From the NCBI RefSeq assembly GCF_046105845.1, contig NZ_CP151004.1: DNA of 64,000 bases; one strand, given 5' to 3'. Position 1 is the first letter of the stretch. Each line of letters begins with the position of its first letter. The position numbers were made by a program. This document shows, one piece after another, positions 43,501 through 46,500 of this stretch. The stretch is from Escherichia coli. GTDB lineage: Bacteria > Pseudomonadota > Gammaproteobacteria > Enterobacterales > Enterobacteriaceae.

Positions 43501-46500
43501 TGTTTCTATCGCGCGGGCGCTGGCGATGGAACCGGAAGTTTTACTGTTTGATGAACCTACCTCGGCGCTCGATCCTGAACTGGTAGGCGAAGTGCTGCGC
43601 ATTATGCAGCAACTGGCAGAAGAGGGGAAAACCATGGTGGTAGTGACTCACGAAATGGGCTTTGCTCGCCATGTTTCTACTCACGTCATTTTCCTCCATC
43701 AGGGGAAAATAGAAGAAGAGGGCGCGCCAGAACAGTTATTCGGTAACCCGCAAAGTCCTCGTCTGCAACAGTTCCTTAAGGGATCGCTGAAATAATTCCC
43801 CCTCCGGTGGCTAACGCTGCCGGAGTATTTTCAAGGGGAATTTGCGAGTCAGCTTACGCTGAAATGTAAAAGTTGCAGTCCGCTAAAAATACTTCTGAAT
43901 TCGCTGTCCAAAGATAAAAACTGCCTGCTGCATTGGGTGTAAATCGTGGTTATTGTCGCGTCATCTTAAATTTGAGGGGTGACGGAACGCCATGACAATA
44001 TCGACAACTTCCACGCCGCATGATGCGGTATTTAAATCTTTTTTACGCCATCCAGACACCGCGCGGGATTTTATTGATATTCATCTTCCTGCGCCGCTGC
44101 GCAAACTGTGTGATTTAACGACGCTTAAACTGGAACCAAACAGTTTTATTGATGAAGACCTGCGGCAATATTATTCCGACCTCTTGTGGTCTGTGAAAAC
44201 GCAGGAGGGAGCGGGTTATATTTATGTGGTGATAGAGCACCAAAGTAAGCCAGAGGAATTAATGGCTTTTCGCATGATGCGCTATTCCATTGCGGCGATG
44301 CAAAACCATCTTGATGCGGGTTATAAAGAGCTTCCATTAGTGATCCCGATGCTGTTTTATCATGGTTGCAGAAGCCCTTATCCATATTCACTCTGCTGGC
44401 TTGATGAATTTGCCGAGCCTGCGATTGCCCGCAAAATTTATTCATCGGCTTTTCCGCTGGTGGATATTACCGTGGTGCCGGATGACGAGATTATGCAACA
44501 TCGCAAAATGGCGCTGTTGGAGTTAATTCAGAAACATATTCGTCAGCGCGATCTGTTGGGATTAGTCGACCAAATTGTTTCGCTGCTAGTTACAGGGAAC
44601 ACTAATGACAGACAGCTAAAAGCCCTGTTTAATTACGTATTACAAACGGGGGATGCCCAGCGTTTCCGTGCATTTATTGGTGAGATAGCGGAACGCGCAC
44701 CACAAGAAAAGGAGAAACTGATGACTATTGCTGACAGATTACGTGAAGAAGGCCGGAATGATGGATTAATTCTGGGCAAACGCGAAGAAGCCCTGCGTAT
44801 TGCTCAGGAGATGCTGGAGAGAGGTTTAGACAGAGAGTTAGTTATGATGGTGACCCGACTTTCACCAGACGATCTTATCGCGCAAAGCCACTAATTCTGT
44901 AACACCAGGAGTTAACTGGCGGATGTTTGCAGTAAACCACATCAGCGAACAACATCCGCCAGCGCCTCTTCTAAATCGTACCAGCGAAACGCAAAACCCG
45001 CTTCTTCCAGCCGTTTAGGCAATGCTCGTTGTCCACCTAATACTAGTACTGAAGATTCGCCCATTAACAGTCGAATGGCGGTCACAGGGACGCGCAAAAT
45101 GGCCGGGCGATGCAGCGCATGACCGAGCGCATGGGCAAATTGTTCATTGCGTACCGGGTAGGGCGAAACCATATTAAATGGCCCGCGCAGCTCGTTATCC
45201 AGCAGCCAGAGAATGCCGTTGACCATATCATCAATATGAATCCAGGCCAGATACTGCCGACCGGAGCCAATCGGCCCGCCCAGACCAAGACGAAACGGCG
45301 GCAGCATTTTACCGAGAATACCGCCATCCGGTGCCAACACTACGCCGGTACGCAGCAGGCACACTCGCGTTTTGTCACTTTGTGCCCGGCAGGCAATTTC
45401 TTCCCAGCGGGCGCAGAGTTTATGGGTAAATTCGTTATGCGGCGGTTCCTCTTCGGTAACCACCACTTCACCTAAGTCGCCATAATAGCCCGTTGCCGAG
45501 CCGGAAATGAGTACCGACGGTGGCGTGTCGCTGGCATTAATCAAATCGACCAGTTTTTGCGTGATATTCCAGCGGCTTTGGCAGAGACGCTCTTTTTGCT
45601 CGTGAGTCCAGCGTTTATCAGCAATCGGTTCTCCGGCCAGATTGATTACCGCATCAACGCCGTTGAGGTTACTTTGATCGGCAAGCCCTTGCCATAGTGT
45701 CACCCGAGGGCCGAGAACGGAACTGGCTTTCTGCGGGTTACGCGTTACTACCGTGATTTGATGGCCCAGATCCAGCAAACGCGGAATCAAATGGCGACCA
45801 ATTAATCCCGTCCCTCCGGTGATCACTATGTTCATGCAGCCTCCCGATATGGCGGTTAACGCTGCCAGCTTAAGGTCATGGATACCGAATCGGCGTAGCG
45901 CAGCGCGTGCAGTTTATCGATCTCCACTTCAGCATACGTCACCCAGTGATGTTCACGTGCGATATCGAGCACATCCTGAGTTAATTTTTCCAGCAAAGAG
46001 AAACGGTTATTCTCTACATGCTGAATAATGTTTTTCGTTACAGTGCGATAATTCAGCGCATCGTTGATATCTTCGCTGGTGCGCGCTTTATCGGCGGGAT
46101 AGTGGATAGTCACATTGATAACAATATCCTGACGGTTGTTAATTTCTTCTTGCTTAATTCCGATAAACGTACGTAAACGAAGGTTCTTTATACGAATAAT
46201 AGCGGCAGGTTGTGCCATTGCAGGTTCTCCGTTGTTTTACTTAGGATGAAATAATACACGAGAACCTGTTTCTGTTAACTATCCGAACGCTCATCACCGA
46301 GTTGTGCTTTTAGCAGTGCCTGCCCGGTGGCAGGGCGCGAACGGATCCGCTCATGCCAGTTCTTGACTGCCGGATACATTGCGAGGTCAATTCGCTGGCG
46401 AGTCCAGGCATTAACCCACGGCCAGCAGGCAATATCCGCAATGCTGTAGTTCTCGCCTCCCAGCCAGGGCGAGTTTTCCAGCCGCTTGTTCAGTACATGG

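Follow-up and report, generated by a model that had tools for sequence, protein, structure and literature searches.

The rpnB gene (yfcI) of the Escherichia coli DNA analysed here, a stretch of 64,000 nucleotides (the window) in which it occupies positions 43992–44894 of the forward strand, very probably constitutes a single-gene toxin-antitoxin unit, that is, a gene within a gene encoding both a long nuclease, RpnB-L, and a short antitoxin, RpnB-S. All of the sequence features needed for such a mechanism are intact in the window allele. In E. coli K-12, rpnB has been described as a gene within a gene, with RpnB-L as the toxic nuclease and RpnB-S as its specific antitoxin (Zhong et al. 2023 PNAS, PMC10400941). 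In the same work ribosome profiling gave an initiation peak at the internal start, RpnB-S was detected as an SPA-tagged protein, destruction of the internal start led to stronger growth inhibition, and RpnB-dependent SOS induction was blocked by RpnB-S and not by RpnA-S (PMC10400941). K-12 RpnB is also among the most toxic of the Rpn paralogues (PMC5350276), and in the library searched the Rpn literature of 2024–2026 yielded nothing that alters this picture of a long (L) and a short (S) product. An earlier note on this DNA, the sequence-only reading, had called the physiological role of the Rpn paralogues poorly defined; this partly stands, but it is outdated where K-12 RpnB-L and RpnB-S have been shown to be a toxin-antitoxin pair.

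The identity of the gene is well supported by profile scores and by its position. In the list of open reading frames (ORFs) of the window, a 300-codon frame with ATG as its first codon has exactly the boundaries 43992–44894 (+). The encoded protein matches the Pfam family PF04754 (Transposase_31, YhgA-like) with an E-value of 2.2e-91 and 305 bits against a cutoff of 21, covering the whole profile at residues 8–209 (44013–44618, +), and the NCBIfam model of the Rpn family, TIGR01784, with 189 bits against a cutoff of 52; scores of this size rule out a chance ORF. Two further NCBIfam models align end to end with scores below their cutoffs, namely the RpnA equivalog NF007361 (466, cutoff 583) and the "ISNCY family transposase" NF007418 (465, cutoff 583), and the protein is therefore neither of those; for NF007361 such a score is what a paralogue of RpnA is expected to give. 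In K-12 MG1655, rpnB (b2305) lies at the same place in the order hisP-rpnB-yfcH, and its product shares 98% amino acid identity with the window protein, a comparison that identifies the window gene as the orthologue of K-12 rpnB. The assignment of the gene to rpnB/yfcI and to the Rpn/YhgA-like PD-(D/E)XK family in the sequence-only reading is thus borne out by both the profiles and K-12 orthology, as is its placement of the gene alone between hisP and yfcH behind about 200 nt of non-coding DNA. The measured spacer after hisP (43022–43795) is 196 nt of non-coding sequence, and yfcH (44942–45835, reverse strand) is convergent with rpnB and lies 47 nt downstream. A tblastn search found no other rpn-like sequence within the window.

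The nuclease part of RpnB-L, which comprises the first 243 residues, retains its active site. The catalytic residues fall within 44022–44273 (+), with codons for D11 at 44022–44024, D63 at 44178–44180, E82 at 44235–44237, Q84 at 44241–44243, and R94 at 44271–44273; the codon for D165 of the PDDE motif was read from the sequence at 44484–44486 (+). The sequence-only reading had proposed an alignment with RpnA, taking loss of the catalytic residues as the mark of an inactive remnant. The window protein has all six of these residues, none of which varies among K-12 RpnA, RpnB, RpnC, and RpnE. Among 101 diverse family members (29–71% identity), D11, D63, E82, Q84, and R94 are each retained in 89–99; D165 varies, with D in 40 and E in 40, and the adjoining D164 is retained in 95. 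Substitutions in RpnA give these positions a functional meaning: D11A, D63A, E82A, and Q84K abolished recombination, toxicity, and SOS induction alike, Q84A and R94A abolished recombination, and D165A was hyperactive in vitro (PMC5350276).

Selection on the nuclease part is strongly purifying, and this part of the gene is therefore maintained. Distant E. coli alleles differ over the first 243 codons by 16–19 synonymous and 0–4 non-synonymous changes, and the ratio of non-synonymous to synonymous substitution rates (dN/dS) is 0.03–0.1 in nine of 11 pairwise comparisons; the other two values, 0.14 and 0.29, come from the pairs that are closest in this part and that differ by only 1–3 substitutions. 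Structural modelling is in keeping with a nuclease fold. An AlphaFold2 model built with the 101 diverse homologues, which came from an exhaustive HMMER search, reached a mean predicted local distance difference test score (pLDDT) of 92 and a predicted template modelling score (pTM) of 0.79; an earlier run on a shallow alignment (all sequences at least 51% identical, most at least 65%) had reached a pLDDT of 57. In the modelled N-terminal core (residues ~9–124), two helices are followed by strands at 40–47, 62–70, and 73–83, a helix at 91–108, and a strand at 116–124, with D63 opening the second strand and E82-x-Q84 closing the third. This predicted arrangement lends support to the classical PD-(D/E)XK layout. 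Foldseek returned no solved structure matching the pLDDT-92 model at E ≤ 0.001, and with the pLDDT-57 model it was uninformative except for Protein Data Bank (PDB) entry 7TH0, the crystal structure of RpnA-S.

The second element of the unit is an internal start with a consensus ribosome-binding site. The sequence at this point reads CAAGAAAAGGAGAAACTGATGACT, in which a Shine-Dalgarno motif AAGGAG (44709–44714, +, codons K240–E241) is followed after six bases by an in-frame ATG at 44721 (M244), which would open a nested coding sequence of 57 residues (44721–44894, +) for the putative intragenic antitoxin RpnB-S. The small internal ORF that the sequence-only reading had suggested looking for is therefore there, at M244 and with a consensus Shine-Dalgarno motif. 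M244 is the only in-frame start in rpnB with a full AAGGAG; the start of RpnB-L has only GAGG about 12 nt from its ATG, a weak and poorly spaced site. Positions 44691–44725 are without variation among 11 E. coli alleles, and RNA around the internal start is more weakly folded than 195 of 200 shuffled sequences (z +1.75). The K-12 paralogues share M244, as do 88 of the 101 diverse homologues.

The product of this nested frame resembles a known antitoxin. The 57-residue S part shares 42% identity with RpnA-S (BLASTP, E 2e-10); against 7TH0 it gives an E-value of 0.034 by sequence, and a Foldseek match of probability 1.0 and TM score 0.75 that derives from the low-confidence pLDDT-57 model. The pLDDT-92 model places a long helix at residues 237–276 and short ones at 281–288 and 292–299, so that the S part is predicted to fold as the three-helix module of RpnA-S. 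Matches of residues 257–291 (44760–44864) to designer pentatricopeptide-repeat structures in the PDB, with E-values down to 8.5e-15, were set aside as an artefact; these E-values are inflated because scores were summed over 10 identical designed repeats that match ~30 residues of helix in the S part, and no single stretch was significant. Just upstream of both starts lies a 21-nt direct repeat (43970–43990 and 44676–44696, 15 of 21 positions matching) sharing CGGAACGC. This is probably a chance resemblance, although it could be a shared regulatory element.

The mechanism that would follow is one in which two translation starts yield a toxin and its own inhibitor. Translation from the ATG at 43992 would give RpnB-L (300 residues), whose N-terminal PD-(D/E)XK-type domain would act as a metal-dependent DNA endonuclease of little sequence specificity, and which would also carry the C-terminal oligomerisation/antitoxin module; free RpnB-L would cause DNA damage, the SOS response, and a stop of growth. 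The ATG at 44721 would in turn give RpnB-S in excess from its own strong start, probably on a separate short transcript; an internal transcription start has been claimed for all K-12 rpn genes from differential RNA sequencing (dRNA-seq; PMC10400941). As the sequence of RpnB-S is that of the C-terminal tail of RpnB-L, we infer a binding geometry in which it attaches to RpnB-L through the long, repeat-bearing first helix and holds its nuclease in check. Which S pairs with which L would be set by repeat number and repeat sequence, by analogy with RpnC, and the window carries a three-glycine version. Release of the nuclease would then follow some trigger, for which phage infection or a shift in the L:S ratio is most plausible, and the resulting DNA damage and growth arrest may abort phage infection, an antiphage role suggested by the plasmid-encoded relative RpnP2.

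The S part is also where rpnB varies most. Relative to K-12, it differs by a 12-nt indel and clustered substitutions: the window reads G254-RND-G258-LIL-G262-KRE at 44751–44785 (+), one four-residue repeat (12 nt) more than G-AMQ-G-KHE in K-12 (which in context reads EEG-AMQGKH-EEAL), so that an extra G-x-x-x unit gives three glycine positions instead of two. The indel lies at S-part residues 12–15, the change starts 11 residues past the internal methionine, and the four-residue repeat variation occupies residues 11–22 past it; the published range of repeat variation is 8–20 residues after the internal methionine. A second variable block at residues ~274–288 (44811–44855, +) differs from MLEKGFDHEVILTLT (or MMEKGF...) in O157:H7 and B2-type alleles. 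Homologues in Citrobacter, Salmonella, and Klebsiella have proteins of 296, 300, 304, and so on up to 320 residues, with S parts of 53, 57, 61, 65, 69, or 73 residues, in steps of four. In the DNA of the S region, Tandem Repeats Finder detected no tandem repeat for the window allele; the repeats are visible at the protein level only. This variation, together with the allele comparisons below, reproduces the published repeat polymorphism and is not an extension of it.

The contrast with the remainder of the gene is evident at several scales. With the 174-nt S region of the window used alone as a query across E. coli genomes, 1,225 genomes matched at 95% identity or more (174 nt in those sampled), 2,149 at 90–95% (162 nt in those sampled), and 1,371 at 80–90% (again 162 nt in those sampled), unlike the entire gene, which is 94–99.8% identical across genomes. 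Among the 11 alleles, 43 variable columns fall within the 150 nt of 44746–44895, against ~3–4 per 50 nt elsewhere. The dN/dS of the S part is 0.3–1.4 between allele classes and 0.05–0.28 within a class, although these values are based on few substitutions in 57 codons. The comparisons mark the S part as the fast-evolving, hypervariable part of rpnB.

Ten sampled alleles and the window allele fall into three classes. The first, exemplified by the window, has a 57-residue S part containing RGLDRELV; the second, exemplified by K-12, has a 53-residue S part with AMQGKH and again RGLDRELV; and the third, found in O157:H7 and B2-type strains, has a 53-residue S part with AMQGKH, KGFDHEVILTLT, and a different helix 2–3. 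The 57-residue type also occurs in Escherichia marmotae (P0004), with three residues different from the window. One may postulate, tentatively and with the odds against it, that the three RpnB-S classes are specificity types that do not cross-neutralise, maintained by diversifying or balancing selection (for example by phage-encoded mimics or inhibitors) and swapped as a module at a breakpoint near the internal start. If this were true, the window gene would be a natural module swap joining a B2-like nuclease part to a different S part.

Compared with two B2-type strains over 43721–45835, the window gene is mosaic. The 271 nt of the hisP 3′ end and intergenic region show 14 differences, the 729 nt of the rpnB N part only 2–3, the 174 nt of the S part 35–36, and the 894 nt of yfcH 29–39. 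The pattern suggests a recombination boundary between 44659 and 44726, within ~60 nt of the internal start, on what is anecdotal evidence from two strains. More broadly, identity to complete E. coli genomes reaches no more than 99.0% across the 24 kb at positions 30000–54000, so that the window comes from a lineage to which no complete genome in the collection is very closely related.

The distribution of rpnB was surveyed by DNA searches in 5,426 complete E. coli genomes. The end of hisP, rpnB, and the end of yfcH formed a single match with at least 80% query coverage in 4,748 of them, and every record among the matches listed was annotated hisP, rpnB, and yfcH. The gene occurs once per genome, always at the same place on the chromosome, with no plasmid match in 4,755 genomes. 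It is missing from ~670 genomes (~12%) that nonetheless have hisP and yfcH. Eight empty sites were sampled, each spanning an identical 813 nt, and the one examined (NZ_CP024720.1) lacks window positions 43903–44915 and retains a 30-nt internal rpnB fragment corresponding to 44436–44465 (27 of 30 identical, E 2.5e-6), joined through CTGG(T/C)GGAT microhomology to window position 44916. As an internal fragment was left behind, the absence reflects deletion and not an unoccupied site. The right endpoint of the deletion, 44916, is the left arm of a 12-nt inverted repeat. Two further strains carry disrupted copies: in strain 116333 the frame is broken by a stop at codon 66, leaving an intact S part that may be an orphan antitoxin, and in strain ST2747 a deletion fuses the 3′ ends of rpnB and yfcH, both of which are pseudogenes.

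Several points weigh against the toxin-antitoxin interpretation or its defensive role and call for caution. The experiments on toxin and antitoxin concern the K-12 allele, to which the 300-residue window allele is linked by orthology, and the nuclease chemistry of RpnB is likewise carried over from RpnA, an Mg-dependent endonuclease in vitro (PMC5350276). Scans with a simple sigma-70 consensus gave no promoter ahead of either start codon, and for the proposed internal transcript the published K-12 dRNA-seq statement is the sole source. The few substitutions behind the S-part dN/dS values count on the same side, as does the absence of the gene from about one genome in eight. The neighbours of rpnB are housekeeping genes instead of a defence island, and PADLOC has no matching model for rpnB. 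We know of no phage that is restricted by a chromosomal RpnB.

The strongest competing explanation, though an improbable one, is the original proposal of Kingston et al. that the protein is a recombination-promoting nuclease aiding the acquisition of foreign DNA, cutting DNA and stimulating RecA-independent recombination during horizontal transfer. In a conjugation assay, over-expressed K-12 RpnB caused a 19-fold rise in RecA-independent recombination, but this gain was seen on over-expression only, alongside DNA damage and 98.7% killing (PMC5350276). Deletion of rpnA-D left the basal frequency and pattern of recombination unchanged (PMC5350276), a result that counts against this proposal and also stands among the points against the toxin-antitoxin interpretation. 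The strong mosaicism of the rpnB locus and the microhomology-mediated deletion in strains without rpnB would fit such a role; E. coli core genes are commonly mosaic, however, and the pattern is not specific evidence for it. The proposal also leaves the nested antitoxin and its hypervariability unexplained.

Far less probable is that rpnB is a decaying remnant with a dead nuclease and at most the small C-terminal protein still of consequence. The disrupted copies in strains 116333 and ST2747, the ~12% of genomes without the gene, and the annotation of the K-12 paralogue RpnE as inactive could be taken in this sense, but the window ORF is intact with every catalytic residue in place. The strong purifying selection on the 243 N-terminal codons argues the same way, and rpnB is therefore not an inactive remnant; K-12 RpnB, the highly toxic paralogue cited above (PMC5350276), differs from the window protein by two residues in the nuclease part.

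Least likely of all, and already largely refuted, is an active or domesticated transposase of an IS-like element (ISNCY/Transposase_31): the Pfam family name, some annotations, the end-to-end alignment of the NF007418 model, and the presence of rpnB in some strains and absence from others invite it, but no inverted repeats flank the gene, each of the 4,755 genomes with the gene has one copy, always at the same site and never on a plasmid, the NF007418 score falls short of its cutoff, and absence is a deletion leaving a 30-nt internal fragment instead of an empty target site. The "domesticated transposase" label of the sequence-only reading thus finds no support. To our knowledge, no autonomous transposase with the Rpn fold exists. 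Zhong et al. likewise argued that Rpn proteins are not transposases, having found neither ends nor target duplications (PMC10400941).

Set beside known systems, the toxin-antitoxin unit of the window is closest to K-12 RpnB, with which it shares the locus, the catalytic residues, and the internal Shine-Dalgarno motif and ATG at M244. The proteins differ in length (300 residues in the window, 296 in K-12), the nuclease part of 243 residues has only two changes (A74V and I118L), and the S part has one more four-residue repeat together with substitutions, among them the E that replaces K-12 D276. By analogy with an experiment in which a repeat was added to RpnC, the window and K-12 S forms may fail to cross-neutralise. 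RpnA (YhgA) is 67% identical overall and has the same catalytic residues and the same internal-start numbering (K240-E241-x-x-M244); RpnA-S, however, has 49 residues, one glycine position, and no extra repeat, as opposed to the three glycines of the window RpnB-S, and RpnA-S does not block RpnB-L in vivo (PMC10400941). The plasmid-encoded RpnP2-L/S of ECOR13 belongs to the same family and, set beside RpnB by description, has the same nested L/S architecture; it differs in being plasmid-borne and in being the only member shown to lower plaquing of T-even phages.

Other PD-(D/E)XK nucleases are more distant, and Foldseek gave no significant match to them. NucS, the AddA nuclease domain, N.BspD6I, and type II restriction enzymes have the canonical lysine where Rpn proteins have glutamine (E-x-Q), and they have no counterpart to the helical middle domain or the S module of Rpn. 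The specificity subunits of EcoR124I and EcoR124II offer a parallel for the repeats, since specificity there likewise changes with the naturally varying number of copies of a helical repeat of four residues (TAEL) (Zhong et al., PMC10400941); that repeat sets the spacing of the DNA target, whereas the Rpn repeat is proposed to set the pairing of the L and S proteins.

The gene, its family, the nested antitoxin, and the repeat-number polymorphism are all already known from publications; rpnB has been well characterised by others and is an ordinary gene of E. coli. The analysis therefore carries little weight for discovery and is of use mainly in annotation, where 43992–44894 is better described as a pair of overlapping coding sequences (L and S) than as a "transposase". 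The three S-part classes, the strong purifying selection on the nuclease part, and the recurrent loss or inactivation nevertheless sharpen two questions of the literature, namely the selection behind S diversity and the release of the nuclease.

The flanking DNA contains several features of possible regulatory interest. A strong hairpin at 43802–43825 (+) with a 10-pair stem (7 GC pairs), followed by TATTTT, resembles an intrinsic terminator of hisP and is conserved in K-12; it marks off the transcription of rpnB from that of the his transporter operon. The 196-nt intergenic region (43796–43991, +) presumably holds the RpnB-L promoter and the 5′ untranslated region, and its last 29 nt are without variation among the 11 alleles. 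They belong to the longer of two variation-free stretches, 43963–44089 (127 nt) and 44505–44596 (92 nt), in alleles whose synonymous divergence is otherwise ~0.1. The second stretch, 125–215 nt upstream of the internal ATG, could hold an internal promoter, although a consensus promoter was not found there.

Beyond the 3′ end of the gene, a perfect 12-nt inverted repeat, CTGGCGGATGTT and AACATCCGCCAG, extends over 44916–44962 (arms 44916–44927 and 44951–44962, with a 23-nt loop). It covers the junction between rpnB and yfcH as well as the final codons of yfcH, and it is possibly a 3′ hairpin shared by the two genes. A search of 43700–45000 against Rfam gave no match at E ≤ 1; across the whole 64-kb window, the only Rfam match at the gathering threshold is a tRNA at 1021–1092 on the reverse strand.

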